Source: Bacillales bacterium UBA3566 (GTDB taxonomy: Bacteria > Bacillota_I > Bacilli_A > Izemoplasmatales > Izemoplasmataceae). From it: a DNA stretch of 64,000 nucleotides. Where the stretch lies: positions 1,339-65,338 of the forward strand of contig DFNN01000135.1 in NCBI GenBank assembly GCA_002376065.1, given 5' to 3'. A program made the translations under genes and the position numbers. The stretch's first letter is position 1. Each line of letters begins with the position of its first letter. The notes below the pieces were generated by a model that had not been told where the DNA came from, did no database searches, and was given only the letters and a program-made list of their open reading frames with translations. Below, in pieces: positions 4,616 through 27,366 of this stretch.

Positions 4616-6643
4616 ATGGCATATAAAGCATTATATCGAACATATAGACCCAGTAATTTTCATGAAATAGCTGGGCAGGAACACATCACAAAAACTTTTC
4701 AAAATGCATTAAAAAACAATAAGATTGCACATGCATATTTATTTAGTGGGCCTCGTGGTACAGGGAAAACTTCCATCGCTAAAATTATCGCAAAAGCAGT
4801 AAATTGTGTAAAAGCACCAACATCAAATCCGTGTAATGAATGTGATATTTGTAAAGGAATTGATCAAAACACAATCAATGATGTGATTGAGATTGATGCT
4901 GCAAGTAATAATGGGGTAGATGAAATTCGTGAAATTCGCGATAAGGTAAAATATTTACCTGGAGTTGGACAATATAAGGTATATATTATAGATGAAGTCC
5001 ACATGTTAAGTACAGGGGCTTTTAATGCATTATTAAAGACATTAGAAGAACCTCCTAAACATGTTATATTCATTTTAGCGACAACAGAACCACATAAGAT
5101 TCCTGCGACAATCCATTCTCGTTGTCAACGTTTTGATTTTAGAGGAATTAGTGTTAAAGAGATTATTAAGCGATTAAATACAATTATCGAAGAAGAACAA
5201 ATAGCGATTGATCATGAAGCTGTAAAAGTGATTGCTGAAAGTGTTGAAGGTGGTATGAGAGATGCGATCAGTTTACTAGATCAGGTTATTTCTTATACTG
5301 AAGATAAAGTAAAAGTTGATGATGTTCATGCAATCAAAGGAACGGTTTCAAACGAAAAGTTACTTGATATAGCATGGTCGATTAAAGAGAACGACTCTAT
5401 TATGGCGATGAAGAAGTTGGATGAATTAATATCACTTGGAAAAGAAGCGCCAAGATTGATTGATAATATGATTCAGTTTTATCGTAATGTATTGATTTAC
5501 AAGAACACAAATGTTGAAGATGATGAACAATTGGTCTATAAAGAGGAAAGATTTAAAGAACTAGCGAGTTCTTTAAGTAATAATGTGGTTTTTTTCTATA
5601 TAGAGGTTCTAAATAAAACATTAAACGATATGAAGTTCTCTAATAACGGGAAATTATTTGCTGAACTTGCACTCATCAAATTGGTTGATCCAATTGAGAA
5701 ACAAGAGCTTGTGATTGAAGATGAAATTTATCTTTTGAAAAAAGAAATTGCGTCTTTGAAAGAAGATATTCACAAAAAATCATTTGAAGCAAAGACAGAA
5801 GAATTTAATTTTGATCAATTTAATGATTTGATAGATGAATCAACAAAATCAAAAGATGAACAAAAAAATATGAACGATGAAGAAGTAACTAGCAAAGAAG
5901 AACAGGATAAAGAAACCACAAAGTTAAATCAAGATATAGATAAAGATATAGACGAAGAAATTGAAGATGAGTCGGTAAAAGAGACAGATAAAGAAAAAGA
6001 ACCGCAAATGGATAAAGAGCAAGAAAGTCTATTTGAATTAGAAGCCCAAGAAGTTGTGGGGGAAAAAGATGAATCTAATCATTTAGATATCGTTGATACA
6101 GAAGAAACAAAACAAGCTACGGATGATAAAAAAGAATATAAAACTTATGATATTCGCTATGTTGAAGATGTTTTAAATAATGCTGATCGAGAAATTAAAA
6201 TACAAATGAATCAAAAATGGTATGATATTGAGCGATTTGCTAGCAATGAACAAATGAACTTTGCTAAGATGATTACAGATGGTAGATTGGTCGCAACTGA
6301 TGGACAAATGATTATTATTGAATATCCATCTGCTTCTCTATGTAATCGTATGATGAAACCTTCAACAAAAAAAGCTGCGACAAAACTTTTGGGTGAGTAT
6401 TACAAACGCGAGATTGATTATCTTGCATTACCAAAGGATGTTTGGGAAGAAAAATCACAAGAATTTATCAAAAAATGGAAAAACAAAGAAACCAATATAA
6501 AGCTTTCTCCTATTAACTACTCGGGACTAAAAGAACTTCCAAAGATTGCTGAAGAAGTAGAAGATTTACAACCGGATAGTGTAAAGGACGCGTTGGATAT
6601 GTTTGGTGATATTGTAAAAGTAAAAAAGGAGAGTAAAAAATGA
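4616..6643 (+). CDS. dnaX: DNA polymerase III subunit gamma/tau
   Basis: YRPSNFHEIAGQEH, Walker A GPRGTGKTS, DEVHML, and a Cys-rich zinc module CNECDIC. Long acidic low-complexity linker. TGA stop overlaps the ybaB ATG. Confidence 0.95.
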   Translation: MAYKALYRTYRPSNFHEIAGQEHITKTFQNALKNNKIAHAYLFSGPRGTGKTSIAKIIAKAVNCVKAPTSNPCNECDICKGIDQNTINDVIEIDAASNNGVDEIREIRDKVKYLPGVGQYKVYIIDEVHMLSTGAFNALLKTLEEPPKHVIFILATTEPHKIPATIHSRCQRFDFRGISVKEIIKRLNTIIEEEQIAIDHEAVKVIAESVEGGMRDAISLLDQVISYTEDKVKVDDVHAIKGTVSNEKLLDIAWSIKENDSIMAMKKLDELISLGKEAPRLIDNMIQFYRNVLIYKNTNVEDDEQLVYKEERFKELASSLSNNVVFFYIEVLNKTLNDMKFSNNGKLFAELALIKLVDPIEKQELVIEDEIYLLKKEIASLKEDIHKKSFEAKTEEFNFDQFNDLIDESTKSKDEQKNMNDEEVTSKEEQDKETTKLNQDIDKDIDEEIEDESVKETDKEKEPQMDKEQESLFELEAQEVVGEKDESNHLDIVDTEETKQATDDKKEYKTYDIRYVEDVLNNADREIKIQMNQKWYDIERFASNEQMNFAKMITDGRLVATDGQMIIIEYPSASLCNRMMKPSTKKAATKLLGEYYKREIDYLALPKDVWEEKSQEFIKKWKNKETNIKLSPINYSGLKELPKIAEEVEDLQPDSVKDALDMFGDIVKVKKESKK

Positions 6644-6945
6644 ATCCAGGTATGATTAAAAAATTACAAAAAATGCAAAAAGAAATGGTGGCAGCACAAA
6701 AAGAATTAGAAGCATCAGTCTTTTATGGTAGTGCTGGTGGGAAAATGGTACAAGTAGAGTTTACTGGGGATAAGAAGATGCAAGATATTACAATTGATAC
6801 TGATGCACTTGAACTTCCTGAAGATATGGATATTTTAAAAGATACTGTGATTGCAGCGGTAAATGATTGTATGAAAAAAATAGATGATGAAACAGAATCT
6901 ACGATGTCAAAATTTACTGGCGGAGGAATGCCAGGATTATTTTAG
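6640..6945 (+). CDS. ybaB: nucleoid-associated protein YbaB/EbfC
   Basis: 101 aa (MIKKLQKMQKEM...VEFTGDKK...) in the conserved dnaX-ybaB-recR order. Confidence 0.9.
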   Translation: MNPGMIKKLQKMQKEMVAAQKELEASVFYGSAGGKMVQVEFTGDKKMQDITIDTDALELPEDMDILKDTVIAAVNDCMKKIDDETESTMSKFTGGGMPGLF

Positions 6946-6957
6946 GGAGTGACTGTT

Positions 6958-7563
6958 GTGAAATACCCAAAAGCATTAGAAGAGTTGATTGAATCTTTAA
7001 GAATGTATCCAGGAGTTGGTAAGAAAACGGCAGAGCGATATGCCCTTTATACATTCAATCGTCTTGATGAAGAACAAATCAATCAAATCATTGAAGCATA
7101 TCAACATATTAAATCTGATATATTTGCCTGCCCAATTTGTGGTAATTTAACCGATACTGATCCATGTTATATATGTAAGGATGAGTCTCGAGATCAACAT
7201 ACTATTATAGTTGTCGAAGATGTCCGTGATGTTATTGCAATGGAAAAGACCAATCATTATCATGGTAAATATCATGTATTAAATGGTGCAATCTCACCTA
7301 GTGATGGAATTGGACCCGAAGACATTAACATTAAAGGGTTGTTAGAGAGATTGCATGATCAGCAAATAAAAGAAGTAATTCTAGCAACAAATCTTAGTAA
7401 TGAAGGTGAAATGACTTCACAATATATTCGAAAACTATTAAGCGATACAGATTTGATTATAAGTCGAATTGCACATGGCCTTCCTGCGGGATCGAACATT
7501 GAATATGCAGATGAAATTACAATTTCAAAAGCATTGGATGGTAGAAAAAAATATGATTCATAA
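6958..7563 (+). CDS. recR: recombination protein RecR
   Basis: YPGVGKKTAERYA helix-hairpin-helix, C4 zinc finger CPICGNLTDTDPCYIC, and a Toprim region. GTG at 6958 has better spacing from the GGGAG RBS than the track start at 6949. Confidence 0.9.
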   Translation: MKYPKALEELIESLRMYPGVGKKTAERYALYTFNRLDEEQINQIIEAYQHIKSDIFACPICGNLTDTDPCYICKDESRDQHTIIVVEDVRDVIAMEKTNHYHGKYHVLNGAISPSDGIGPEDINIKGLLERLHDQQIKEVILATNLSNEGEMTSQYIRKLLSDTDLIISRIAHGLPAGSNIEYADEITISKALDGRKKYDS

Positions 7564-7643
7564 TATTTTTTACGAATATTCATAATATATACACATCTAT
7601 TTTGTTATAATAGGAATAGATGAATATTAAATGAGGTGAAAAA

Positions 7644-7910
7644 ATGTTAGAAAGTTTAGGGTTAGAAGCAATCGTAGATGCATTAGAAGGTTTGTTTGAT
7701 GTGAATCAATACATCGACGCTGGAGCGGCTTTTTTAAGAAATTTAGGGATACTTGAACAGATTGTCGTTGCAATATTGGCAGTAATCATTACTGTTTTAG
7801 GAACATTCGAGTTAATTAAAAAACTTTCAAAAATTGTCATAGTTGTGGCAGTACTTGTTGGACTATACTTACTTTATGATGGTGAAGTATTTAGCAGTAT
7901 TTTAGGCTAA
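7644..7910 (+). CDS. small hypothetical membrane protein (88 aa)
   Basis: ORF with a GAGGTG RBS and two hydrophobic helices. Followed by a terminator. Confidence 0.45.
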   Translation: MLESLGLEAIVDALEGLFDVNQYIDAGAAFLRNLGILEQIVVAILAVIITVLGTFELIKKLSKIVIVVAVLVGLYLLYDGEVFSSILG

Positions 7911-7917
7911 ACAAAGG

Positions 7918-7941
7918 GACGGGATTATCCTGTCTTTTTTT
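7918..7941 (+). terminator. rho-independent terminator
   Basis: GACGGGA-TTA-TCCTGTC hairpin (one G-U pair) followed by T7. Confidence 0.7.
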
Positions 7942-7967
7942 ATGTTTCACGAATTATTTAGAATATT

Positions 7968-8037
7968 TTAACAGTATTTTAACAGAATTAAAAACTTACA
8001 AAATAATGTTTAAAAACGGTTACTTTTATTGTATAAT
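7968..8037 (+). promoter_or_regulatory. candidate Pho-box plus -10 element upstream of the ABC/nuclease operon
   Basis: TTAACA at 7968-7973 and 7979-7984 (11-bp period). Degenerate TTAAAA (7988) and TTACAA (7996) follow. TATAAT at 8032-8037 with no good -35. Confidence 0.45.
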
Positions 8038-8071
8038 GTAGTGTTAATCAAATTAACTTAGGAGAGATAAA

Positions 8072-9136
8072 ATGGAAATTAAATTAGAAATGCTCACTAA
8101 AGTTTTCGACAATAAGGAAAAAGGGTTGACGACTGCGGTAGATAAGTTGGATATTACAATTCCTAGTGGAAAACTCATTGGGTTACTTGGACCAAGTGGA
8201 TGTGGGAAATCAACAACCTTATATATGATTGCAGGGTTGCTTAAACCAACTGAAGGTAAAATCTATTTTGGAGATGAGAATGTAACTGATATTCCACCAG
8301 AAGATCGTGGAATCGGACTTGTGTTCCAAAATTATGCATTATATCCACACATGACTGTTGCACAAAATATCATGTTCCCATTAGAAAATTTGAAGGTTCC
8401 GAAAGCTGAAGCGATTGAGCGTGCTCAAGAAATGGCTGATTTGGTCGGAATTGGAGAATTAATGGATCGTAAACCAAAACAATTATCAGGTGGTCAACAA
8501 CAACGTGTGGCAATTGCGCGCGCGCTTGTTAAGAAACCACGTGTTTTATTGCTTGATGAGCCACTAAGTAATTTAGATGCTAGATTACGTTTAGCGACTC
8601 GTGAGGAAATAAAAAGGATTCAACGTGAAACAGGGATTACAACTGTATTCGTTACGCATGACCAAGAAGAGGCAATGAGTATTAGTGATGAAATCGTATT
8701 GATGGAGCTTGGAATAAAGCAACAAGTTGGAGAACCACAAGATGTATATGATAAACCTGACAATTTATTTGTTGCGAAATTTTTAGGGACACCACCAATT
8801 AACTTGTTTGATGGACATATTAAAGATGGAAAAATAATGATTGGTGATGCAAATATCGGTCAATTGAAAACTGATGATAAAGAAGTCATTGTTGGAATAA
8901 GACCAGAAGGATTTAGTTTAACAGAACGTTCAAGTTTAAAAGTTGAAGTTGATTTGGTTGAAACGATTGGTCGAGATACCACATTAATTATTGAAAATCC
9001 TACTAGAAAAGGGGAAACATTTAGAGCGATTGTCGATGCTGAAAAACGCATCAAACCAGGAGACAAAATCAAACTGAATGTGAAACCAACGAAACTCTTC
9101 GTCTTTGAAAAAGATACTGGAGAATTAGTGAATTAA
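8072..9136 (+). CDS. ABC transporter ATP-binding protein, MalK/UgpC/MsmX type (CUT1 family)
   Basis: Walker [10 protein letters not shown], signature [15 protein letters not shown], Walker B LLLDEPLSNLD, and a C-terminal regulatory OB-like domain. Confidence 0.92.
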   Translation: MEIKLEMLTKVFDNKEKGLTTAVDKLDITIPSGKLIGLLGPSGCGKSTTLYMIAGLLKPTEGKIYFGDENVTDIPPEDRGIGLVFQNYALYPHMTVAQNIMFPLENLKVPKAEAIERAQEMADLVGIGELMDRKPKQLSGGQQQRVAIARALVKKPRVLLLDEPLSNLDARLRLATREEIKRIQRETGITTVFVTHDQEEAMSISDEIVLMELGIKQQVGEPQDVYDKPDNLFVAKFLGTPPINLFDGHIKDGKIMIGDANIGQLKTDDKEVIVGIRPEGFSLTERSSLKVEVDLVETIGRDTTLIIENPTRKGETFRAIVDAEKRIKPGDKIKLNVKPTKLFVFEKDTGELVN

Positions 9137-10048
9137 ATGTTAGAAGAAAAGCATAATATAAAAGCCTGGTTGTATTTAGCACCAGCTATGATTTTATTGT
9201 TGGTGTTTACATTTTATCCTATATTTAATGCATTTTTCTTAGTATTTTTAAGAGATTTTAACTTTTTAGCAGGATCATTTGATGGATTTACTTTAACCGA
9301 GAACTTTGTATATATACTAAATAAACCGGATTTTAAAAAAGCATTATTAAATACATTAATGATTGTGTTTGTATCGGTTCCTGTTTCTGTTATATTGGCA
9401 TTATTGATATCAGCTTGGTTAAACTCTATTAAGAAATTACAAGGATTTTTCCAAACAATATTCTTTTTACCTTATGTAACCAATGCAATTGCGATTGGTA
9501 TGGCATTTGCATTCTTATTCCATCGAAACTATGGGTTGATTAACACCATATTTAATTGGATAGGACTTCCTAGTATCAACTGGGTTGGGTTAGGTGCTGG
9601 ATACTGGAGCTCTATGTTTGCATTACTTGTATTTATTATTTGGAGTGGGTTGGCATTTAAAATTATGGTCTTCTTAAGTGGGCTTCAAAGTATTGATAAA
9701 CAATATTATGATGCTGCTAAAGTAGATTCGACTCCAAGATCTCGTATTTTCACAAAAATAACTGTACCTTTGCTTTCTCCGATGATTGCTTATATTACAA
9801 TCACTTCAATTATTGGAGCATTTAAAGAGTATACCGCCGTAATTGGTATGTTTGGTGTCCGTTTGGGGCCAGCAGGTAATGACGGTGCACTCGTAACGAT
9901 TGTTGCGCTTGTTTATGAAGCGATTAGTCGTTCGGGATCTGATGGTGCTTATAGTGAGGCTGCTGCGGCATCTATAATTCTTTTTGCAATAACACTCGTT
10001 TTTACGCTAATCAATATGCAAGTTAGCAAAAAACGAGTCCATTTCTAG
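9137..10048 (+). CDS. CUT1-family ABC permease (UgpA/MalF-like)
   Basis: 303 aa, six TM helices. Starts 1 nt after the ATPase stop. Confidence 0.85.
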   Translation: MLEEKHNIKAWLYLAPAMILLLVFTFYPIFNAFFLVFLRDFNFLAGSFDGFTLTENFVYILNKPDFKKALLNTLMIVFVSVPVSVILALLISAWLNSIKKLQGFFQTIFFLPYVTNAIAIGMAFAFLFHRNYGLINTIFNWIGLPSINWVGLGAGYWSSMFALLVFIIWSGLAFKIMVFLSGLQSIDKQYYDAAKVDSTPRSRIFTKITVPLLSPMIAYITITSIIGAFKEYTAVIGMFGVRLGPAGNDGALVTIVALVYEAISRSGSDGAYSEAAAASIILFAITLVFTLINMQVSKKRVHF

Positions 10049-10058
10049 GAGTGATAAT

Positions 10059-10964
10059 ATGAGTGAAAATAGAAAACCTACATTATCGAAAAAAGAACAA
10101 GCAGCCAGAAAACAAAAAATTATTCGATTAGTGATTGTATATACGTTGTTAACATTTGTTGCGCTATTCATAGTTACACCGTTTTATTGGATGATTTTGA
10201 CCAGTTTAAAAACAGCACAGCAAATTGATAGAATACCACCGATTTTATTCTTAAAACCGGGAGATTGGCAATTAAGAAACTTTGCGCTTGCATTGCAGGC
10301 GGCACCTTATGCTAGATTTATGATGAATACAGTGATTGTTGCTGCAATTTCAACGTTTGGAACAATCATTACAACTGTACTTGCAGCGTTTGCGTTTGCT
10401 AGAATCAATTTTAAAGGAAGAGATTTTATCTTTATGATTTTGATTTCTAGTATGATGATACCTGGTGAAATGTTTGTCATTACAAACTTTATGACAGTAA
10501 ACACATTAGGATGGATTCGTGATCAATCATTTATTGATGCTTTAGCTGCAATGTCCTTCCCATTTATGACAAGTATTTTCTACTTGTTCTTCTTGAGACA
10601 AACGTTTAAACAAGTACCTGATGAATTATATTTGGCGGCGAAAGTGGATGGGACCTCAGATTTTAAATACTTGTTAAAAGTCATGATACCGATTGCGAAA
10701 CCGACGATTATAACAATTATCATTTTGAACGCAATGGGAACATGGAATGCATACATTTGGCCAAACTTAGTATCGCCACAGAATGAAAATTATCGTTTGG
10801 TATCAAATGGATTAAGAAATGCTTATCGAGATTTATCAGGGCAAGTGGCTTATAATGAACAAATGTCCGCTGCGTTGATTGTTACAATACCATTATTAAT
10901 TGTGTTCTTATTATTGAAAAAACAAATTATGCGAGGAGTTTCTCGTAGTGGAATTAAAGGATAG
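10059..10964 (+). CDS. CUT1-family ABC permease (UgpE/MalG-like)
   Basis: 301 aa with an EAA-like loop (LYLAAKVDGTSDFKYLLKVMIPIAKP). Confidence 0.85.
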   Translation: MSENRKPTLSKKEQAARKQKIIRLVIVYTLLTFVALFIVTPFYWMILTSLKTAQQIDRIPPILFLKPGDWQLRNFALALQAAPYARFMMNTVIVAAISTFGTIITTVLAAFAFARINFKGRDFIFMILISSMMIPGEMFVITNFMTVNTLGWIRDQSFIDALAAMSFPFMTSIFYLFFLRQTFKQVPDELYLAAKVDGTSDFKYLLKVMIPIAKPTIITIIILNAMGTWNAYIWPNLVSPQNENYRLVSNGLRNAYRDLSGQVAYNEQMSAALIVTIPLLIVFLLLKKQIMRGVSRSGIKG

Positions 10965-11038
10965 TATTCAAATATAGTTTGATTGCTGTTATAATAATAA
11001 TAGAGATATATTTATAATAATAAGGAGGAGAAGTTTAG

Positions 11039-12397
11039 ATGAAAAGAATTTTTGTTTTATTATTAAGCTTGACATTAGTATTGGCTTTATCGGGTTGTAT
11101 TTTTGGTGGAGGAAGAGAAGAAACCACTGTTACAATTCCAAATGAATTACCGGATGAAGAAATTGAAATTACATTATGGCATGCATTTGGGGATGCCAAC
11201 CAAGAATTGTTACAAGAGATGTTTGACGAGTTTACTGAAATGTATCCAAATGTAACAATTAATCAAGTAACACAAGGTGGATATGATGAGTTACGTAGTG
11301 CAACAATTAATGCGATCACTGCAGGGACTACACCAACACTTGTTATGGGATATCCTGACCACTTTGTTGAATATTTAAATGGTAATGCTTTGGTACCACT
11401 AGATGAGTATATTGAGCATGAAGAATTCGGTGTAGATCTTGATGATTTTGTACCTGGATTCTTAGCTGAAAATCAACAATATTTAGATGGTAAAATGTAT
11501 TCAATGCCATTTGCAAAATCAACTGAAATGGTTGTTTATAACAAAACAGTGTTTGATTATCATGGAATTGACATTCCAAACGATGAAGCATTAACTTGGA
11601 CAGATTTAGAAGGATTTGCTGATACAATTATTGGTGATGGAGAATATCAATGTGAATTCTTATTCAATGCTGACTCTGCAGCAAACTTCTTCATCAACTC
11701 ATCACGTCAATGGGACGCAGGGTATACTACTACTGAAGGTGATGTATTGATTGATAACCAATCAACTAGAGATATGCTAAATTATTATAAAGATTTAATG
11801 GATCAAGATATCTTAGCATTCCCAATCGAGTGGGATCAAGATTATGGTTCAACAAACTTCTTGCAAGGTGATGTATGTATGACTCAAGGGTCTACTGCAG
11901 GAACTAGATATAATATTCCAGTTGAAGGTCAAGAAGGTAAATTTGGACAGTTTGAAGTTGGAATTACTCCAATTATCCAATTAGAAGATGGAACAGCTTC
12001 AGCAATTCAACAAGGACCAAACATTGCAATGGTTTCTGATGCAACAGAGGCAGAAAGATTAGCAGCTTGGTTACTAATTAAACATATGACAAATACAGAA
12101 AATACAGCATTCTTTGCAATGAACACTGGGTATGTACCTGTTCGTTTATCAGCGTTCAATGATCCAGATTATCAAGCATTCTTAAACACAGATGATCCAG
12201 ATCGTTTGCCATTCTCAATGGCAGCAAATGTTGCTTATGCTCAAGTAGATTATTACCAATATGATCCAGCGTTTGTTGGTAGAATTACTTCTTCTACAGT
12301 TCGACAAGAAGCAGGGTTCATGTTTGAAAGAATTTATTCTGAGACACAAACTGTTGAAGAATCATTAGAACAAATGTTGGAACAATTAGGACAATAA
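11039..12397 (+). CDS. ABC transporter substrate-binding lipoprotein (family-1 SBP)
   Basis: Lipobox LALSGC. EIEITLWHAFGD... and MGYPDH motifs typical of CUT1 solute-binding proteins. Strong AAGGAGGAG RBS. Confidence 0.85.
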   Translation: MKRIFVLLLSLTLVLALSGCIFGGGREETTVTIPNELPDEEIEITLWHAFGDANQELLQEMFDEFTEMYPNVTINQVTQGGYDELRSATINAITAGTTPTLVMGYPDHFVEYLNGNALVPLDEYIEHEEFGVDLDDFVPGFLAENQQYLDGKMYSMPFAKSTEMVVYNKTVFDYHGIDIPNDEALTWTDLEGFADTIIGDGEYQCEFLFNADSAANFFINSSRQWDAGYTTTEGDVLIDNQSTRDMLNYYKDLMDQDILAFPIEWDQDYGSTNFLQGDVCMTQGSTAGTRYNIPVEGQEGKFGQFEVGITPIIQLEDGTASAIQQGPNIAMVSDATEAERLAAWLLIKHMTNTENTAFFAMNTGYVPVRLSAFNDPDYQAFLNTDDPDRLPFSMAANVAYAQVDYYQYDPAFVGRITSSTVRQEAGFMFERIYSETQTVEESLEQMLEQLGQ

Positions 12398-12400
12398 GTT

Positions 12401-13576
12401 TTGAATAAAGTTTTACTAATATCTTTAGGAATTATTTTGAGTTTCACCCTCGTTGCTTGCGGGGGTGAAGACTCAACAAATGAGTATGAGTTAAACACAG
12501 AGTTAACAGATGAGTTAACTTTGGATCGTTCTTATGATGGTACAACATTAGAACAAGATGGTATTGAAGAAGTATCTTTGGTTAGTTGTGAGGATGGAGA
12601 TACTGCTGTTTTTGATACTGTAGATGGAGAAGTAAGAGTGAGGTTTTTAGGGATTGATACCCCGGAAGCCAGTTATAAATATGATCCTTGGGGTCTTGCT
12701 GCAACGCAGTTTACATGTGAAAAACTATATGGAGCCGAAACCTTAGTAGTTGAACAAGATGAAGAGGCCGGGCCGGTTGACAATTATGGACGTCATTTAG
12801 GATATGTATGGTATGATGGTCGTTTGTTAAATCTTGAAGTGATTGAACAAGCATATTCTTTGGCTGTTGGTGTTGAAAAACTGAAATATGGTGAGGAAAT
12901 GCTGGCTGCACAAAATCATGCAAGTTTGACTGAAAAAAGACTTCATGGTGAAGATGATCCTGCATATGATTATAGTACGTCTGGAACAGATATGACAATT
13001 GAAGAAATTGTCAAGAATTACGAAGATAATATATTGAAAAGTGTCAACGTTGAAGGTGTTATTACACGAAAATTAGGGACACATGTATATATCGAACAAG
13101 ATGGCTATGGGATTTACGTATATACAGGTTATGAGACAAGCGCCAAGTTGGTTATTGGTCACGAGGTACGATTTGAAAAAATGCAAGTTATTTATGACTT
13201 AAGAAGACGTGGTGGCCTTCACTTAGCGAGATTCAATGTAAGAACAGTTTCTGTATTAAGTGAAGATAATCCTGTTAATCCTAAAACATTGAGTATTGAT
13301 GAAATAACACCGTTAGATTATGGAGTCTTCAGTAGGTTTGAGGATTTAGAGATTGTTGAAATTGACATGACTAATCAAATTTGGACGATGACTTTAAAGC
13401 AAAACGGTGAAACAATGAAAGTGATTCAGCCATATGGTATTTTAGAAGAAAATATTGTAGATGTAGAACAGTTTATGATTGGACAGGTCATCAATGTTCA
13501 AGGAGTTTTACAGGAAACGATCGATGGTTATCAATTGTTGATATTAAATAGTGATGATGTAACGACGGATGAATAA
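12401..13576 (+). CDS. surface lipoprotein: SNase (thermonuclease) domain plus C-terminal OB-like barrel
   Basis: TTG start 3 nt after the SBP stop. Lipobox TLVACGG. SNase signatures DGDTAVF, RVRFLGIDTPE, NYGRHLGYVWYDGRLLNLEVIEQAYS. C-terminal VNVEGVITRKLGTHVYIEQDGYGIYVY. Confidence 0.85.
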   Translation: MNKVLLISLGIILSFTLVACGGEDSTNEYELNTELTDELTLDRSYDGTTLEQDGIEEVSLVSCEDGDTAVFDTVDGEVRVRFLGIDTPEASYKYDPWGLAATQFTCEKLYGAETLVVEQDEEAGPVDNYGRHLGYVWYDGRLLNLEVIEQAYSLAVGVEKLKYGEEMLAAQNHASLTEKRLHGEDDPAYDYSTSGTDMTIEEIVKNYEDNILKSVNVEGVITRKLGTHVYIEQDGYGIYVYTGYETSAKLVIGHEVRFEKMQVIYDLRRRGGLHLARFNVRTVSVLSEDNPVNPKTLSIDEITPLDYGVFSRFEDLEIVEIDMTNQIWTMTLKQNGETMKVIQPYGILEENIVDVEQFMIGQVINVQGVLQETIDGYQLLILNSDDVTTDE

Positions 13577-13610
13577 TATGTCGTTTGCTAGATAAAAGGA
13601 TTTGATAAAA

Positions 13611-14798
13611 ATGAAGAAATTGTTCACTTTAGGACTGGTAGCAATTAGTATAATCGTTCTTGCTGCTTGTACTGAAAAAGCGCCAGAAGATGAAGAAATA
13701 GATCGCACGTTAACGACTACACTGACTGATAGTCTTGAGTTAGAAACTGATTATGCAGGAATGTCATTTATCCAAGATGGTATTGGAGAAGTTGAGTTGG
13801 TTAGATGTGTCGATGGAGATACTGCTATATTTGCTGAAGGTTCTCAAGAATTTAGTGTACGTTATTTGGGAATTGATACTCCTGAATCTACTTATCGATT
13901 TGATCCTTGGGGAAAAGCGGCAAGTGATCACATGTGTGAGGCGTTAGAAAGTGCATCAACCATCGTACTTGAAGCTGATGAGTATACAGAAAGAAAAGAT
14001 GGCAATGATCGATATTTGGCTTATGTTTGGTTAGATGGTCGAAACATTAATTTAGAAATGATTGAACTTGCGTATACACCAGCTACAGGTGCGACAGATT
14101 TAGAATATGGTGCTTTATTTTCACAAGCATGGTTTAAAGCACAGGCAACGGAACGTCGTATTTGGGGTGAAGATGACCCTAATTTTGATTATTCAAAAGA
14201 AGGAGTCCAAATTACGATTGAAGAACTAGTAACAAATCAAAGTGAATATATCGGGAGAAAAGTGACGATAACTGGAGTGATTTCTAGTAAAGTAGGACGA
14301 CATGGGTATATTCAACAAGGGGATTATGGAGTATATGTATATACTGGGTTTGAATATACGACAAAATTCCAAATAGGAAATGAAGTAACGCTTGATAATG
14401 TAGTGCCAACATATCATCCAGATGAAGAAACTGGTGCATTACAATTAAGTGGATTTAGAGCAAGAAATTTAGAAATATTATCAGAAGGAAATATTGTTGA
14501 ACCAAATCTTGTTACGGTGAGTGAGTTGACAAATGAAATGATTGGGTCTTTGGTAGAGATTCATCAGTTAACAATTGTTGATGTATATGCTGGACAAGAT
14601 GGCGCATTTACTGTTTATACAGAAGATGAGTTTGGGAATTCTTTGGTATTAAGAAAAGATTCTTCGAGCTCAAGTGATATCGAAATCACAGATTATTCTG
14701 TTGGAAAAATTCTCAATATCGTTGGTCCTGTACATGTATATAATAGCGAGATGCAAATTATGATTACGAGTACACAAGACGTAACGTTCATTGAATAA
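13611..14798 (+). CDS. surface lipoprotein: SNase domain plus C-terminal OB-like barrel (paralogue of the previous gene)
   Basis: Lipobox VLAACTE. DGDTAIF, SVRYLGIDTPE, DRYLAYVWLDGRNINLEMIELAYT. C-terminal KVTITGVISSKVGRHGYIQQGDYGVYVY. Start could also be the TTG at 13602. Confidence 0.85.
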   Translation: MKKLFTLGLVAISIIVLAACTEKAPEDEEIDRTLTTTLTDSLELETDYAGMSFIQDGIGEVELVRCVDGDTAIFAEGSQEFSVRYLGIDTPESTYRFDPWGKAASDHMCEALESASTIVLEADEYTERKDGNDRYLAYVWLDGRNINLEMIELAYTPATGATDLEYGALFSQAWFKAQATERRIWGEDDPNFDYSKEGVQITIEELVTNQSEYIGRKVTITGVISSKVGRHGYIQQGDYGVYVYTGFEYTTKFQIGNEVTLDNVVPTYHPDEETGALQLSGFRARNLEILSEGNIVEPNLVTVSELTNEMIGSLVEIHQLTIVDVYAGQDGAFTVYTEDEFGNSLVLRKDSSSSSDIEITDYSVGKILNIVGPVHVYNSEMQIMITSTQDVTFIE

Positions 14799-14824
14799 TA
14801 AAAGAAATGGGAGGAAACAATTAA

Positions 14825-17764
14825 ATGAAGAAAATATTAACATTGGCTTTAATATTAATTGCTTCAATTACACTTGTTGCTTGTGGTGGAACCACCGATG
14901 ATGGTGAATTATCAGATGCAGACAAAGTAGAAGAAGCAAGAGCAGCTTTATTGCTTGGTGGATTAGATCAAGTAAAAGCAAATATGAATTTACCTACTGC
15001 TGGTAGAAATGGGACAACAATTACTTGGGAATCAAGTGATCCTAGTGTTATTTCTAATACTGGTGAAGTTACTCGTCCAGAAGAGGGAGAAGGTAATGTA
15101 GAAGTTACATTAACTGCGACCATTACATTGAATGACGAAAGTGCGACTAGAGAATTTATTGCGGTGGTTATTCAAGAAGAACCTTCTAGTACGTTTGATA
15201 CTATTGCGGAGTTACATACAGCATCAGCTAAAAATGATGTAGTTGAATTCCAAGGGATTGTATCATCTGTATTTAATGGAGGATATTTCTTAACGGATGG
15301 AACTGATGTCATTGGTGTATATGGACAATTGGCTGAAGAAGTAAATGTTGGCGATGAAATCTTTGTCAAAGGATCATATGCTTCTTATTACACATTGTTC
15401 CAAATCTCTGATGTGACAGTTGAAGATATCGTTAGTACTGGAAATCCAGTGAATTTGCCTGTAACTAATACAACGATTGCGGGAATATTAAACGAAGATT
15501 CTTCAGATAAATTAATTCACGGGAAACATTATAGTATAATTGGTACTGTAGAATTGCGTGGAGAATTCAATAATGTTTGGTTATTTACTGGTGATCAAGA
15601 TGTTGTAATTTATTATCAATCTCCTGCTGATTCAATTGCGGCTTTAGAAGCTGTTGTTGGTGAAACAATTGCGATTGATGTTGTATATTATACTGATCAT
15701 CCTGTTGATGGTTTACGTGTTGTATTCCAAGGGGACGCTAGTGATATTACATTAGAAGATGATTTTAGTGATGAGCAAACTACTCGTTTAGCTGCTAGTT
15801 TCTTAAGTTTTGGTGAATTAGAAACAACGACTGATTTTGAACTACCATCTGAAATTGCTGATTATGGTGCAAGTGTTACTTGGGCTACAAGTGATGCAAG
15901 TGTTGTTACTGCTGATGGATTAGTTACAAGAGATGAAGATACTGATTTAGAAGCTACTTTAACAGCGACAGTTACAGTAGGAAGTGAATCATTTGATATT
16001 GATTTCCCTGTTGTAGTCATTAGTTATGCGACTGAATCTGCGACACCTGTGGCAGTTGCTGATGTTCTTGCTGGTACTGTTGGAGATGAATTCTTAGTTG
16101 AAGGTGTTGTATCTGCAATCAACTCTACTTACGGATTCTTTATCCAAGATGCTGATGGAACTGCGATTTATGTTGCTAGTATTTTCGAAGGTGTAGAAGT
16201 TGGAGATCACGTTGTATTACGTGGAGACTTAGGTTTATGGGATAGTTATGGTAACTATCAATTAAAACTAGTTGATTCTTCATTGGTTGAAGATAATGAT
16301 GGTGATCACGATGTGCATATCATTACAGATCAAACTGGTACACAAATTGTTGATACTTTCTTAGAAGATTATAGTAATTCAAGTAAAATTTATACAACTG
16401 ATTTAACATTTAGTCATGTAGATACTTATGGGTATGCATTCTTTGATGCCGGTACTGCTGGTGAGATGAGAATCACATTCAAATATACTGATTACGCTCC
16501 ATTCTTAGAAACTGCTGAAGAAGGATATGTTCTAGAAGATGTTACATTCGTTGTTTATGATGTGAACTATGACAACTTACGTGTTGTTTCAGTTGAAATT
16601 TTAGAAGAAGCAGTTGCGGTTGCTGATGTACTTGCTGGTACTGTTGGTGAAAACTATTATGTTACTGGTGTTGTTTCAGCTGTCAATATGCATTATGGAT
16701 TCTTTATCCAAGATGCTGATGGAACTGCAATTTATGTTAAAGGTTCATTTGCTGGAGTTGAAGAAGGGGACTTAGTTGAAGTCGTTGGAGATTTGGCAAT
16801 TTGGGATCAATATGGAAATAGTCAATTGAGTTTGGAAAATGTTGTATTAAAAGACAATTTCAAAGGAAATGAAAGTATTCATATTATTACCGATCAAACA
16901 GCTGTACAAATCGTTGATACTTTCCAAGCAGATTATAGTAATTCAGGAAAAATATTCACTGCAGACTTAACATTTAGTCATGTAGATACATATGGATATG
17001 CATTCTTCGATATGGGAACTGCGGGAGATATGCAAATTACATTCAAATATACTGATTATGCTCCATTCTTAGAAGACGCTACTGAAGGTGACATTTTAGA
17101 AAACGTAACATTCGTTGTTTATGATGTTAACTATGATAACTTACGCGTTGTTTCAGTAATCTTAGATGAAACTGCACATTATGCTCATTTGGTTGATAAT
17201 GATACTGTAGTTACAGTAACTGGTGTTGTAACATTTGTACAAAACTATGATGGTTCATTCTTCGTAGAAGACGCTGATGGAACAACAATTTATGTAGATG
17301 ATTTTAGCAATTCATTAGAAGCTTGGCCAACAGTAGCTGTTGGTGATGAAGTAACTGTTGTTGGAGACAAAGGGTTCTATCGAGTACCACTTGTTGATAC
17401 AGTAAGTGCTATAACAATTAATTCAAGCGCAAATGCTTTAACAGATACAGTTCACGCTGTTGCTGATGTTGCTACATTCCGTGATGCGCCTAACAGTATG
17501 GACTTCGGACAAAGATTTACATTTACTGATGTTACTGTTGTAGAAGTTGCTGATGGTGAAATTGTATTCTATCAAAACGGTGAAAACCATACAATGTTAA
17601 TTGATTTAGATGAATCTGTTGACTTGAGTTCACTAGCTATCGAAGCTGGAGATGTGATTACATTTACTGCAACATTATATCGTTCATATGATAAGTATGA
17701 TGATATTGATGCAACTTATTACTTTGGTGTAACTGATGCTGCTGATGTAACAGTAGCTGAATAA
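14825..17764 (+). CDS. 979-aa lipoprotein built from Ig-like and OB-fold-like modules, with no recognisable catalytic domain
   Basis: Lipobox TLVACGG. Two TW(E/A)SSDPSV...TLTATI Ig-like modules. At least five G(I/V)V(S/T)...(Y/F)F(L/I/V)(T/Q/E)D(G/A)(T/D)...IYV...VGDE OB-like modules. Contains an internal tandem duplication. Confidence 0.8.
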   Translation: MKKILTLALILIASITLVACGGTTDDGELSDADKVEEARAALLLGGLDQVKANMNLPTAGRNGTTITWESSDPSVISNTGEVTRPEEGEGNVEVTLTATITLNDESATREFIAVVIQEEPSSTFDTIAELHTASAKNDVVEFQGIVSSVFNGGYFLTDGTDVIGVYGQLAEEVNVGDEIFVKGSYASYYTLFQISDVTVEDIVSTGNPVNLPVTNTTIAGILNEDSSDKLIHGKHYSIIGTVELRGEFNNVWLFTGDQDVVIYYQSPADSIAALEAVVGETIAIDVVYYTDHPVDGLRVVFQGDASDITLEDDFSDEQTTRLAASFLSFGELETTTDFELPSEIADYGASVTWATSDASVVTADGLVTRDEDTDLEATLTATVTVGSESFDIDFPVVVISYATESATPVAVADVLAGTVGDEFLVEGVVSAINSTYGFFIQDADGTAIYVASIFEGVEVGDHVVLRGDLGLWDSYGNYQLKLVDSSLVEDNDGDHDVHIITDQTGTQIVDTFLEDYSNSSKIYTTDLTFSHVDTYGYAFFDAGTAGEMRITFKYTDYAPFLETAEEGYVLEDVTFVVYDVNYDNLRVVSVEILEEAVAVADVLAGTVGENYYVTGVVSAVNMHYGFFIQDADGTAIYVKGSFAGVEEGDLVEVVGDLAIWDQYGNSQLSLENVVLKDNFKGNESIHIITDQTAVQIVDTFQADYSNSGKIFTADLTFSHVDTYGYAFFDMGTAGDMQITFKYTDYAPFLEDATEGDILENVTFVVYDVNYDNLRVVSVILDETAHYAHLVDNDTVVTVTGVVTFVQNYDGSFFVEDADGTTIYVDDFSNSLEAWPTVAVGDEVTVVGDKGFYRVPLVDTVSAITINSSANALTDTVHAVADVATFRDAPNSMDFGQRFTFTDVTVVEVADGEIVFYQNGENHTMLIDLDESVDLSSLAIEAGDVITFTATLYRSYDKYDDIDATYYFGVTDAADVTVAE
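16049..17176 (+). repeat. in-frame tandem duplication, 2 x 564 nt (188 aa), inside the 979-aa lipoprotein gene
   Basis: Unit 1 is 16049-16612 and unit 2 is 16613-17176. Identical runs include GGATTCTTTATCCAAGATGCTGATGGAACTGC at 16133 and 16697. Protein units VAVADVLAGTVG...NYDNLRVVSV are clearly alignable. Confidence 0.9.
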
Positions 17765-17786
17765 TAAAACTCTATTTTTCAAGTTA

Positions 17787-17818
17787 AAACACCACTGCTT
17801 TAGTGGTGTTTTTCTTTT
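17787..17818 (+). terminator. rho-independent terminator
   Basis: AAACACCACT / AGTGGTGTTT 10-bp stem followed by a T-run. Confidence 0.85.
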
Positions 17819-18810: not shown

Positions 18811-18878
18811 TCTATTTTCAATAGTTTTTTAAGTTGTTGTATGATATAATGTAATGTTATTTTTAAGAGGTGAAATAG

Positions 18879-20781: not shown

Positions 20782-20794
20782 ACTCTCTTTTTTG
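20765..20794 (+). terminator. rho-independent terminator
   Basis: AAGAGAGTTT / AAACTCTCTT stem spanning the stop codon, followed by a T-run. Confidence 0.7.
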
Positions 20795-20822
20795 TTAAGA
20801 TTATGTTAAGATAGAATTAAGA
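20795..20822 (+). promoter_or_regulatory. three direct TTAAGA repeats with 11-bp period (candidate Pho box)
   Basis: TTAAGA at 20795, 20806 and 20817, about 70-100 nt upstream of the Na/Pi transporter start. Confidence 0.45.
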
Positions 20823-20893
20823 AATCGTAAAATTGTTTCAATATCATTAAAATTGTGTTATATTTTCATTGGTGAACTTGAGGAGGTATTGAT

Positions 20894-22570
20894 ATGATTT
20901 TAGCAGTTGATATTGATTGGCAGTGGACAATATTTGCCATTGTTGGTGGATTAGGGATATTCTTATTTGGGATTAATTTGATGGGTGATTCTCTAAAAGC
21001 AATGGCAGGTAACAAGATTAAAATTATTATTGAAAAGTCTACAAATACACCTTTGAAGGGTATTTTGATGGGAATCTTAATTACTGCGTTATTACAATCA
21101 TCATCAGGTACTACAGCTATTACAGTTGGTCTTGTTCGTGCTGGATTGATGACTTTGCCACAGGCAGTAGGAATAATATTAGGTGCGAATATTGGAACGA
21201 CAGTTACTTCTTTTTTACTTGGACTACCGATTAAGGAATATGCATTACCAATCATGGCACTCGGAAGTTTTTTGATTTTCTTCTTTGGTCGCAAGAAAAC
21301 AAAACAGTTCGGAGGAGTTTTATTAGGGTTTGGAATGTTGTTTTACGGATTAGACATTATGGGTGGTGCTTTAAAGCAATTGGTCAATTTACCAGCATTC
21401 GAGCAAGCCTTATTGTCAGTCGCAGAAACACCAATCTTAGGATTGGTTGTAGGCGCTTTATCTACTGCAGTTATTCAATCAAGTAGTGCAACAATAGGGA
21501 TATTACAAGAATTATATACAACAGGGTATATCCCGCTTATTGGTGCAATTGCGATTGTATTTGGAGATAATATAGGGACAACTGTTACTGCAGTTTTAGC
21601 TTCTCTTGGAGGCAGTGTAGCGGCAAAAAGAACAGCAGCAGCACATGTGCTTTTTAATATCATCGGAAGTATCGTATTCATGTTATTCTTAGGGGTATAT
21701 ACAAGACTTATACAAGGAATGGAACTTGCTTTTTTAGATGGTGAAAAGCATAAACTAACGATAAGTTATGCACATATGATTTTTAATATTACAAATACCT
21801 TTATTATGTTTTGGTTTGTGAAACAACTTGTTTGGCTTGTGACAAAAATTATCCGTGGTGAAGATGGGTTAATTGAAGTTGATTTTCAGGCTTTACAAGA
21901 GGATTTGATTGAAGAAGCTCCTGTACTTGCTTTAGAGAGTGCAAAAATTGTTGTGACGAATATGGGGAAACTAACTGAACAAATGTTTGATTCTACAGTG
22001 GAATATTCATTTAGTAATCAAAAGAAACTTTTTGAAAATGGTATGCAGATAGAAGAAATGCTCGATACGATTGACAAAAAAGCTCATGATTATTTGGTGA
22101 AGATTGCTCAAGGCGGGCTTGATTCAGAGTCTTCACAGTTACAAGCTTCTTATGTAGATACAATTCGAGATTTTGAGCGTATTGGGGATCATTGTACAAA
22201 TATTTTACAGTTTTTCGAACATAGGTATGATAATAAAATAGCATTATCAGAAGATGCTGAGAAAGAACTTTCTAGGTTGTATGATATTGTTAAAGAATCA
22301 ATTGGATTAACAATTAAAGCATTCGAACATTATGATAAAGAAGCTGCAATGCAAGTAATAGAGCGAGAAGAAGTCATTGATCGATTGGTGATTAAAAACC
22401 GAAAACGTCATATTATGCGTATCAATCATGCAGATTCTAGTGAGCAAGAAGATGAATTTTATGTTGATATTTTATCAAATATTGAACGTATTGGAGATCA
22501 TTGTAATAACATAGTAATCAATATCTTACAAGAAAACTATTATAATGAAGAATTGGATTATGAATATTAA
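20894..22570 (+). CDS. Na+/phosphate symporter (NptA/YjbB family) with C-terminal PhoU-like repeats
   Basis: Duplicated QSSSGTTAITVGL / QSSSATIGIL Na/Pi-cotransporter motifs. C-terminal ERIGDHCTNI and ERIGDHCNNI PhoU-type repeats. GAGGAGG RBS. Confidence 0.85.
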   Translation: MILAVDIDWQWTIFAIVGGLGIFLFGINLMGDSLKAMAGNKIKIIIEKSTNTPLKGILMGILITALLQSSSGTTAITVGLVRAGLMTLPQAVGIILGANIGTTVTSFLLGLPIKEYALPIMALGSFLIFFFGRKKTKQFGGVLLGFGMLFYGLDIMGGALKQLVNLPAFEQALLSVAETPILGLVVGALSTAVIQSSSATIGILQELYTTGYIPLIGAIAIVFGDNIGTTVTAVLASLGGSVAAKRTAAAHVLFNIIGSIVFMLFLGVYTRLIQGMELAFLDGEKHKLTISYAHMIFNITNTFIMFWFVKQLVWLVTKIIRGEDGLIEVDFQALQEDLIEEAPVLALESAKIVVTNMGKLTEQMFDSTVEYSFSNQKKLFENGMQIEEMLDTIDKKAHDYLVKIAQGGLDSESSQLQASYVDTIRDFERIGDHCTNILQFFEHRYDNKIALSEDAEKELSRLYDIVKESIGLTIKAFEHYDKEAAMQVIEREEVIDRLVIKNRKRHIMRINHADSSEQEDEFYVDILSNIERIGDHCNNIVINILQENYYNEELDYEY

Positions 22571-22650
22571 GATATGATAAATGAGTGTTAAGATTTCATA
22601 AATTGTTAACATTTTAAATTAGAGTTGTGCTATCATAACAGTGGAGTGTG

Positions 22651-23322
22651 ATGAATATGCCAAAGATTTTGATCATTGAAGATGAAAAATCAATTCAACG
22701 TATGATTGCTTATGATTTAAAACAGTTAGGGTATGAAGTTGAAAGTGCAGTTGATGGATTTGAAGGATACAAAAAAGCATCTACTTTTCATTATGATGTT
22801 ATTTTGTTGGATTTGATGTTGCCTAATATGAATGGGATGGACATTTGTAAAAAGCTTCGTGATGAAGGAAATAACTCATATATTATTATGTTGACTGCTG
22901 TTGACGATGAGTTTAATAAAATACAAGGATTTGATGTTGGCGCAGATGATTATGTGACAAAACCTTTTTCTCCAAGGGAGTTAACTGCTCGTATAAGAGC
23001 TGGATTGAGAAGACAAGGTAATTCAGAAAAAGAAGACATCATTTACTATGAAGATTTAAAAATTGTGCAAAGTAGTTATGAAGTATACCAAAATGATGAA
23101 AAGGTTGATTTAACGTTAAAAGAGTTCGAGTTATTGGTCTACTTTATCCTTAATAAAGGGAAAGCTTTATCTCGTGATCAGCTGTTGACAAATCTTTGGG
23201 GATTTAGTTATGATGGTGATTCACGTGTAGTGGATGTCCATGTGTTTAAACTTAGAGAGAAAATTGATCCAAAAGCAAATTGGATTAAGACTGTACGTGG
23301 TATTGGGTATAAGATTGTATAA
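22651..23322 (+). CDS. OmpR-family response regulator, PhoP/PhoB-like
   Basis: Receiver domain (ILIIEDE...DVILLDLMLP...KPF) plus a winged-helix domain (LTLKEFELL...VRGIGYKI). Start is ambiguous between 22651 and 22657. Confidence 0.85.
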   Translation: MNMPKILIIEDEKSIQRMIAYDLKQLGYEVESAVDGFEGYKKASTFHYDVILLDLMLPNMNGMDICKKLRDEGNNSYIIMLTAVDDEFNKIQGFDVGADDYVTKPFSPRELTARIRAGLRRQGNSEKEDIIYYEDLKIVQSSYEVYQNDEKVDLTLKEFELLVYFILNKGKALSRDQLLTNLWGFSYDGDSRVVDVHVFKLREKIDPKANWIKTVRGIGYKIV

Positions 23323-23328
23323 CTAAAT

Positions 23329-23353
23329 AGGATGACTTCGGTCATCCTTTTTT
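23329..23353 (+). terminator. rho-independent terminator
   Basis: AGGATGAC-TTCG-GTCATCCT hairpin followed by a T-run. Confidence 0.9.
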
Positions 23354-23371
23354 AATACTTGTTGATATTTG

Positions 23372-23425
23372 TTAACAGAGAATTAACAATAACGGTATTT
23401 GTATTTAATATTCATTTTATATAAT
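23372..23425 (+). promoter_or_regulatory. candidate Pho box and -10 element of the pstS promoter
   Basis: TTAACA at 23372 and 23383, a degenerate hexamer at 23394, and TTAATA at 23405 (all on an 11-bp period). TATAAT at 23420-23425 with no canonical -35. Confidence 0.55.
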
Positions 23426-23460: not shown

Positions 23461-24393
23461 ATGAAAAAATTATTATTATTAGCATTGGCAATTACATCTG
23501 TAGGAGTCTTGGCTGCCTGCGGTGGAAATAGTGAAGAAGGTTTTGATACAAGTAAAAATATTACTGTTTACACAAGAGACACATCAAGTGGAACACGTGA
23601 TGGATTTATGAATGGTATTGGTTTTGGTGAAGCTTCTGCTGATGATAGTGTATTAGTAGATGGATTTGTAACAAATGATAATACAGCTATCTTAACAGCG
23701 ATGACTACAGATGAATATGGTATTGGGTATATTTCATTGGCTAGTTTGAATAATACTGTTAAAGGCTTAAGTTTTGATGGTGTAGAACCAACGGTACAAA
23801 ACGTAATCAATAATACATATGGGTTAAAAAGACCATTTAATTATGTATTAAGAGCTCCAGGAGATTATGATTCACCTGAAGCGGAAGCAATTGCAAATGC
23901 GTTTGTTGCTTTCTTAAGAACGACAGATGGTTCCGATGTAATTATGGATCAAGGTGCAGTAGCACTTGAATCAAGTGATACTTGGGATGATATCAAAGCT
24001 GATTACGAGATTTGTAATGAAGATAATAGTGGAGTAGTCATTCGTTTTGGTGGATCAGATTCGATTCAAAAAGTTGCAGAAGCATTGAGTGCGGCATTCT
24101 CGCCAAAATGTGGAGACTTTGTTGCTGAACATGACCATACAGGTTCATCAGATGGATTCAAACGTACACAAGGTTCAGAAAAAGATGGAGATAATGCGAA
24201 ACATGTTGGGTTTGCTTCTCGTCCATTCAAAGATACTGAAGCTGGTGTAGAAGGAACACAAGGACAATTGGCTTGGGATGCAATTGTAGCGATCGTGCAT
24301 GTAAACAACGATTTAGATAGTGTTACTGCAGAAGATTTGAAAAAAATCTACTCTGGCGAATATACTACTTGGGAAGATTTACTCTCTGAATAA
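23461..24393 (+). CDS. pstS: phosphate ABC transporter substrate-binding lipoprotein PstS
   Basis: Lipobox VLAACGG. TRDTSSGTRDGF phosphate-binding loop pattern. Located directly upstream of pstCAB. Confidence 0.85.
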   Translation: MKKLLLLALAITSVGVLAACGGNSEEGFDTSKNITVYTRDTSSGTRDGFMNGIGFGEASADDSVLVDGFVTNDNTAILTAMTTDEYGIGYISLASLNNTVKGLSFDGVEPTVQNVINNTYGLKRPFNYVLRAPGDYDSPEAEAIANAFVAFLRTTDGSDVIMDQGAVALESSDTWDDIKADYEICNEDNSGVVIRFGGSDSIQKVAEALSAAFSPKCGDFVAEHDHTGSSDGFKRTQGSEKDGDNAKHVGFASRPFKDTEAGVEGTQGQLAWDAIVAIVHVNNDLDSVTAEDLKKIYSGEYTTWEDLLSE

Positions 24394-24428
24394 ATCATCT
24401 AACAACTGAATATAGTATTAAGTAGATT

Positions 24429-24448
24429 GCCCTTTCTGAGGGCTTTTT
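24429..24448 (+). terminator. weak intra-operon hairpin after pstS (possible partial terminator)
   Basis: GCCCT-TTCTG-AGGGC followed by T5. Confidence 0.4.
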
Positions 24449-24467
24449 ACCATAAAGGAGCATAGAT

Positions 24468-26589: not shown

Positions 26590-26601
26590 AGGAGAATATA
26601 T

Positions 26602-27360: not shown

Positions 27361-27366
27361 GAGTGT

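Follow-up and report, generated by a model that had tools for sequence, protein, structure and literature searches.

Candidate Pho boxes and a cre-like box at the promoter of an ABC/nuclease operon in the Izemoplasmataceae

The DNA-degradation and phosphate gene block

The window, by which we mean the whole 64,000-nucleotide stretch of DNA analysed here, comes from an uncultured, wall-less marine bacterium of the Izemoplasmataceae and contains an operon encoding an ABC importer and surface nucleases, which is followed downstream by the genes of phosphate uptake and phosphate sensing (Table 1). The order of this block, running from the ABC genes through the nucleases, the DHH enzymes, the Na/Pi symporter, the regulator, the pst genes and phoU to the kinase, shows family-wide synteny. 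Terminators at 17786, 18773 and 20764 divide the block into separate transcription units, and the promoter at 8032 therefore serves the genes between 8072 and 17764. Wasmund et al. 2021 (PMC8289736, Fig. 6) have presented the same cluster as the ‘DNA-degradation locus’ of Ca. Izemoplasmatales, and Zheng et al. 2021 (PMC8397711) and Zheng et al. 2023 (PMC10470597) report it again from their isolates. Both the gene cluster and its phosphate-transporter neighbourhood are the same in the published locus as here. Searches by term in these three papers gave nothing on promoters, Pho boxes, two-component regulators or cre sites, and the regulatory reading developed below is the sole new part relative to the published locus.

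Directly upstream of the ABC operon lie ybaB, recR and the gene for a small membrane protein (6640-7910). For the isolate of Zheng et al. 2023 (PMC10470597), an approximately 27-fold induction by DNA/RNA is reported for two proteins of the corresponding locus, RecR and a hypothetical protein; this hints at co-regulation or read-through in that organism.

Table 1. Genes and regulatory features of the block, in window coordinates; the roles given for DNA sites are predictions
Feature	Position	Strand	Details
Intrinsic terminator of the small membrane-protein gene (7644-7910)	7913-7939	+	12-bp stem, then T run; start of the regulatory region
Weak hexamers TTCACG (7946) and TTTAGA (7957)	7946-7962	+	Exact 11-bp phase with the consensus pair; possible low-affinity boxes
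Consensus Pho-box dimer TTAACA-GTATT-TTAACA	7968-7984	+	Hexamers at 7968-7973 and 7979-7984, period 11 bp; probable (predicted) site for one dimer of the PhoP-like regulator
TTAAAA (7988-7993) and TTACAA (7996-8001)	7988-8001	+	Hexamer-like; steps of 9 and 8 bp, out of 11-bp phase; function doubtful
-35-like hexamer TTTAAA (4/6)	8009-8014	+	17 bp from the -10
cre-like box TAAAAACGGTTACT	8011-8024	.	Two mismatches to TGWAANCGNTNWCA; counterpart of the conserved GAAAACGCTT of relatives; probable CcpA-type operator
-10 TATAAT (8032-8037), then conserved GTAGTGTTAA (8038-8047)	8032-8047	+	TGTTAA at 8042-8047
AGGAGAG	8060-8066		Between the promoter and the ATG at 8072
Transcription unit of the promoter at 8032	8072-17764	+	Ends at terminator 17786-17812
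UgpC-like ABC ATPase, two permeases, solute-binding lipoprotein (weakly UgpB-like)	8072-12397	+	Pfam/NCBIfam
Two SNase lipoproteins	starts 12401, 13602	+	Pfam/NCBIfam
979-aa Ig/OB-fold lipoprotein	start 14825	+	Pfam/NCBIfam
Third SNase	start 17849		Pfam/NCBIfam
Two DHH/DHHA1 enzymes	starts 18879, 19807		Pfam/NCBIfam
Na/Pi symporter boxes, four, 11-bp-phased, inverted	20793-20831	-	On the + strand TGTTAA, TGTTAA, AATTAA, CGTAAA
Na/Pi cotransporter (symporter) with PhoU domains	20894-22570		Pfam/NCBIfam
Weaker regulator-gene boxes	22575-22611	-	TGTTAAG (22585); palindromic TGTTAACA (22604)
OmpR-family response regulator, PhoB/PhoP-like	22648-23322	+
pstS promoter hexamers TTAATA (23352), TTGATA (23362), TTAACA (23372-23377), TTAACA (23383-23388)	23352-23425	+	Phase continued by GGTATT (23394) and TTAATA (23405), then TATAAT (23420-23425); pstS ATG at 23461
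pstS-pstC-pstA-pstB-phoU	23461-28029	+
Sensor histidine kinase, PnpS/PhoR type	28072-29295	+

The elements of the ABC promoter on which an earlier, sequence-only reading of this DNA had drawn are exactly where it placed them, with TTAACA at 7968 and 7979, TTAAAA at 7988, TTACAA at 7996 and TATAAT at 8032-8037. Its statement that the -10 has no credible -35 was too strong, because a 4/6 TTTAAA lies at the right spacing from TATAAT, overlapped by the conserved cre-like box. The promoter has two consensus and two weak hexamers (5/6 and 4/6), the consensus pair lying 64 and 53 bp before the -10. This corresponds to about -76 to -60, outside the classic core position of Pho boxes at -60 to -20.

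Two further details of the leader may be recorded here. Between the -10 and the ribosome-binding site, 8042-8058 forms a perfect 6-bp inverted repeat (GTTAAT-CAA-ATTAAC), which is not conserved in most relatives, and TGTTAA directly after the -10 is kept in most of them. The longer word TATAATGTA(A/G)TGTTA, comprising the -10 and nine conserved bases, is common to the ABC (8032-8047) and DHH (18845-18859) promoters and a few others; it also occurs on G000 contigs C122:49, C50:11132 and C61:29963, and pstS has the similar TATAATCGTAGTGTAG. The word after the -10 could be start-site context or another operator. An Rfam scan of 7500-30500 returned no RNA family at E up to 0.1, which argues against a riboswitch or leader explanation, and a search for small repeats within 7900-8080 gave weak inverted pairs only.

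Rarity and conservation of the TTAACA boxes

The exact TTAACA-N5-TTAACA dyad is rare, with four copies on both strands of the 1,776,106-bp genome. Three of these lie in the 157 kb of intergenic DNA, as against expectations of 0.10 under independence and 0.21 in Markov-1 simulations, and three intergenic copies were reached in none of 300 simulations. The three, at 7968 (+), 20793-20809 (-) and 23372 (+), all fall inside one 16-kb phosphate block, where they precede the ABC/nuclease operon, the Na/Pi symporter (inverted) and pstS, respectively. The sequence-only reading had already noted the second dyad before pstS (23372/23383), and the intergenic enrichment that it proposed as a test is borne out: at four copies in 1.78 Mb, the word does not recur at a similar frequency throughout the genome. 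The fourth exact copy, on contig C7, stands before a flavodoxin-like gene; a single copy by chance is expected over the whole genome, and this may be it. Within any one 160-bp region, the expectation is 2e-4. When up to one mismatch was allowed, the window held six matches against 2.0 expected.

We compared the block with its counterparts in 20 genomes from the family and order and in five named records, and found the motif to be conserved at the phosphate transporters. Dimers of TT(A/T/C)AC(A/G) hexamers precede pstS in six genomes, all of them gene-oriented (+) and 83-91 nt from the ATG, and precede the symporter in six genomes, all of them inverted and 90-115 nt from the ATG. A weaker site lies before the regulator gene in five genomes. 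The pstS, symporter and regulator-gene sites are all significant against shuffles of their own composition; upstream of the third SNase gene, the DHH pair and the kinase gene the search gave no boxes. The TTAAGA repeats that can be read at the inverted symporter and regulator-gene boxes are an overlapping reverse-strand reading of cTTAACA. TTCACG, one of the two weak hexamers of the ABC promoter, and TTTACG are variants that are also found in the conserved pstS sites of relatives.

The position and orientation of the pstS and symporter sites, conserved in 5-6 other Izemoplasmataceae genomes, together with the weaker site before the regulator gene, argue for a real Pho box, and we take the motif, as predicted from these comparisons, to be the Bacillus-type Pho box of the lineage's PhoP/PnpS-like two-component pair. 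The symporter and the regulator gene, which also carry the motif, had not been connected with it by the sequence-only reading; through its own boxes, the regulator gene is probably autoregulated. Repression of the symporter, which might be read from the inversion of its boxes, was considered and rejected because the boxes of the Lacticaseibacillus paracasei phnD promoter are inverted and that promoter is nevertheless reported to be PhoP-activated (PMC11870197).

The proteins that such a motif calls for are present. A PhoP/PhoR-like pair had been proposed to be encoded downstream of the ABC operon, and our searches agree with this, identifying a PhoB/PhoP-like regulator and a PnpS/PhoR-like kinase. 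The regulator scores 212 bits against PhoB and 213 bits against YycF; among its solved relatives the best is RegX3, which responds to phosphate, and the receiver domain of B. subtilis PhoP ranks slightly above that of YycF. The kinase scores 334 bits against PnpS, 243 bits against PhoR and 248 bits against WalK. No clear WalR/WalK was found among the five OmpR-type regulators of this 85%-complete genome, three of the other four having been scored. A second OmpR-type regulator and a 596-aa kinase lie at the end of the window (62403-64000 and beyond; C31:63741-66207, minus strand), that kinase being WalK-like in its catalytic core only and that regulator scoring 199 bits against PhoB and 166 bits against YycF.

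The ABC/nuclease operon and the Pho regulon

In B. subtilis, the core binding site of PhoP is reported to comprise four hexamers of the TT(A/T/C)ACA type, repeated every 11 bp (Eder et al. 1999 via PMC11870197). The hexamer consensus, the direct repeats and the 11-bp period are the same here, an OmpR/PhoB-family regulator is again encoded with a kinase gene nearby, and the genome's own pstS promoter matches the B. subtilis arrangement, its phased hexamers spanning about -60 to -22 with a poor -35. The ABC promoter, in contrast, lacks a PHO core at -60 to -20 in place of the -35. It has only two consensus hexamers, about 16 bp upstream of the core position, and carries a usable -35 and the cre-like box where the proximal boxes would sit. 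Compared with the boxes of pstS, those of the ABC promoter are displaced by about 16 bp away from the -10, which leaves them half a helical turn out of register and on the other face of the helix.

The ABC promoter nevertheless stands out from the rest of the genome. When upstream regions were scored with a matrix built solely from the pstS and symporter sites, it fell within the top ~1% of 655-899, the background gene calls being our own crude ORF calls. It is fourth among the genome's 11-bp-phased matrix hits, after the symporter, pstS and one unrelated gene, and four of the best five such hits lie in this block. When further members of the regulon were sought, the top matches outside the block were mostly unrelated genes (for a GGDEF protein, a hemerythrin-like protein, an MFS transporter, a GntR regulator and ribosomal protein L15), an LtaS-like gene and an arsR operon standing apart from these.

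Evidence from relatives is more divided. The ABC-promoter dimer rises above the 5% own-composition shuffle level in 8 of 25 genomes, with 1.25 expected (Fisher 3e-6, for kin that are not independent). In several of those eight relatives it lies too far upstream or inside the leader, the sole comparably placed sites being those of L035 and L032 at 58/48 bp before the -10 (64/53 here). A rigid 11-bp matrix gave marginal enrichment on the relatives' ABC promoters (p=0.04), and a flexible 10-12 bp model gave stronger enrichment with scattered positions; in these matrix tests the background regions came from this genome only, composition being corrected by per-region shuffles. Before the ABC operon of most relatives the dimer is absent, including the two nearest, L056 and L058 (76-81% ATPase identity), and the ABC promoter of the single-contig genome L038 has TTTACATTAACA only. 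A metagenome search for close relatives found none nearer than this 76-81% ATPase identity, which makes fine-scale footprinting impossible.

Taken together, we consider that the ABC/nuclease operon probably, though by no means certainly, belongs to the Pho regulon, with the TTAACA pair as candidate operator of the PhoP-like regulator. This was the central proposal of the sequence-only reading, and it is favoured by a rare dyad shared with pstS, the symporter and the regulator gene, and weakened by a non-core position and by absence from most relatives. Membership of the ABC operon is accordingly less secure than that of the pstS and symporter motif sites. We infer regulator binding, the sign of regulation and the transcription start site.

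In the model that we propose, the dyad at 7968-7984 would act as an operator for the response regulator encoded at 22648-23322, with the kinase at 28072-29295 as its partner. When phosphate is scarce, the phosphorylated regulator would bind the 11-bp-phased hexamers as a head-to-tail dimer, and the TATAAT promoter at 8032 would become more active. This would bring the genes for the importer, both surface nucleases and the DNA-binding OB-fold lipoprotein into a small Pho regulon, alongside pstSCAB-phoU, the Na/Pi symporter gene and the gene of the regulator. Through the cre-like box over the -35 region the operon would probably also be shut down by preferred carbon sources, such that DNA foraging would be switched on by a lack of phosphate, of better carbon, or of both.

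The coupling of nucleases to phosphate starvation has precedents. The Xds and Dns nucleases of Vibrio cholerae, together with phosphatases, are reported to supply phosphate from DNA under Pho control (PMC4714964), and Pho-regulated extracellular nucleases are reported in Shewanella (Pinchuk et al. 2008, cited in PMC8289736). The logic of extracellular DNA as a phosphorus source is the same in those systems as in our model, in which the control is a prediction. The machinery differs: here, on a wall-less cell, it consists of SNase lipoproteins accompanied by an OB-fold lipoprotein, with the nucleases in one operon with a Ugp-like ABC importer and adjoining the pst genes.

The cre-like box, carbon control and competing readings

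When the orthologous ABC promoters were aligned on the -10, the best-conserved element was not the Pho box but (G/A)AAAACGCTT, which lies over the -35/spacer and fits the cre consensus TGWAANCGNTNWCA. It is seen at the same promoter position among L031-L054, TAAAAACGGTTACT being the copy in the window. A cre-like element occupies this fixed place in 15 of the 23 orthologous promoters, and 10 of the 23 have at most two mismatches to the consensus, compared with 7% of background regions; strict cre matches are approximately 4-fold enriched in intergenic DNA. The genome also encodes HprK (219 bits), four HPr-type genes and seven LacI-family regulators, among them a CcpA-like protein that scores 303 bits to the ccpA model, under the curated cut-off of 442 and far above any other family. 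The likeness to the CcpA/cre system of Bacillota extends to the 14-bp pseudo-palindrome with its central CG, to its placement over the -35/spacer like that of repressing cre sites, and to the presence of the CcpA-like, HprK and HPr genes. The two mismatches of the window copy and the sub-threshold score of the CcpA-like protein set it apart, and another LacI-family regulator could be the binder of the box.

The conservation of this element points to catabolite repression of the DNA-foraging operon, in which case the promoter probably answers to carbon status too, and the cre-like box is probably an added and more general control of the locus. The further claim of the sequence-only reading, that extracellular nucleic acid is harvested primarily as a phosphorus source, is unsupported for three reasons. 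The cre-like box shares the promoter, and DNA would therefore not be harvested for phosphorus alone. Izemoplasmataceae are reported to be labelled by 13C-DNA in stable-isotope probing (PMC8289736). Finally, in both cultured relatives DNA (DNA/RNA) is reported to induce the locus in a phosphate-replete medium with 0.5 g/L KH2PO4, or 3.7 mM phosphate (PMC8397711, PMC10470597). Dual control by phosphorus and carbon is more likely than a harvest directed primarily at phosphorus.

These same observations give weight to the competing reading that survives best, in which the regulator binds but represses or modulates, or the site is weak and inert, and the main control lies in cre-like catabolite repression and substrate induction. 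The frequency of the cre-like element at its fixed place, its intergenic enrichment and the presence of CcpA-like, HprK and HPr genes would all fit such an arrangement, as would the non-canonical position of the boxes and the DNA induction seen at 3.7 mM phosphate. Activated promoters in Bacillus carry their Pho boxes in the pstS-like (+) orientation, however, and the ABC site is oriented in the same way. Two perfect hexamers are also unlikely to persist unselected in a 160-bp spacer, and the cre-like box of the window is itself weak. Although Fitzgerald et al. 2023 (cited in PMC11870197) report many inert PhoB sites in E. coli, we regard this explanation as unlikely for the site before the ABC operon.

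It is quite improbable that the second TTAACA (7979) is instead the -35 of a second sigma-A promoter, with a spacing of 17 bp to AATAAT at 8002-8007, the first copy being coincidental and no response regulator being involved. TTAACA is one base from TTGACA and the arrangement at 7979-8007 scores 10/12 in a promoter scan, but that scan gives no excess of promoter-like sites over shuffles (71 vs 78), and the conserved promoter of the family is the one with TATAAT at 8032. An identical hexamer exactly 11 bp upstream, and the same 17-mer skeleton at pstS and the symporter, would also go unexplained.

A functionless chance occurrence of the dyad in an AT-rich spacer would account for the fourth exact copy before the unrelated flavodoxin-like gene, for several high matrix scores before genes without a phosphate link, and for the missing site in the nearest relatives. 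We judge it very improbable in view of the low expectation for the region and of the fact that three of the four copies fall in one phosphate gene block.

The consensus of WalR is TGTWAH-N5-TGTWAH, which the reverse complement of the dyad, TGTTAA-N5-TGTTAA, fits; the near-equal YycF and PhoB scores of the regulator and a pair in ‘WalR orientation’ before an LtaS-like gene on contig C28 point the same way. That the boxes serve a WalR(YycF)-like and not a phosphate function is nonetheless the least probable of these readings, since the kinase type (PnpS/PhoR-like, not WalK-like) and the targets (the best-conserved sites being at pstS and the Na/Pi symporter, both phosphate transporters) make a phosphate role much more likely, the regulator gene lies inside the pst cluster, and the organism belongs to a group reported to be wall-less (PMC8397711).

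Returning to Pho control of the ABC/nuclease operon, a broader arrangement can be offered tentatively, as a possibility that we think rather less likely than that control itself. A single PhoP/WalR-like regulator and CcpA could form a two-input nutrient gate on the DNA-degradation locus, permitting harvest when phosphorus or good carbon runs out, and the boxes in inverted orientation before the Na/Pi symporter and LtaS-like genes could represent a second, oppositely oriented class of targets.

Seafloor microbes meet much of their phosphorus demand from extracellular DNA, and Izemoplasmatales have been named among the organisms that degrade it. To our knowledge, nothing has been said so far about when they turn on the DNA-foraging locus. 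The predicted Pho and cre boxes provide a testable answer, in which the timing would depend on phosphate and carbon status, and the motif can be used for reading Pho regulons in metagenome-assembled genomes of the Izemoplasmatales group. As the switch itself is textbook biology, the gain is in annotation and ecology and not in a new mechanism.

Some minor observations concern sites elsewhere. At G000 contig C28:7888, the inverted pair TGTTAAG-N4-TGTAATA lies approximately 40 bp before the -10 of the LtaS-like gene, which encodes a 666-aa membrane protein and adjoins a glycosyltransferase gene; it may be a Pho-controlled gene for membrane-lipid or glycolipid remodelling in a wall-less cell. An arsenic-resistance operon that opens with arsR (ArsR, permease, ArsC-like, ACR3-like) has a box-like dimer, TTAACAGAAAAATAACA, 108 nt upstream, at G000 contig C33:5485. 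Although arsenate is an analogue of phosphate, the dimer may be a chance match. In the ABC promoters of L038, L039 and L042 the cre-like word is absent and a palindrome, (A)TTTTCGAAAA(T), lies approximately 45 bp before the -10, with the look of a separate operator used by this sub-lineage. The upstream region of L039 additionally carries a direct repeat of roughly 25 bp (TTTTTAAATATAAAGTAT...).
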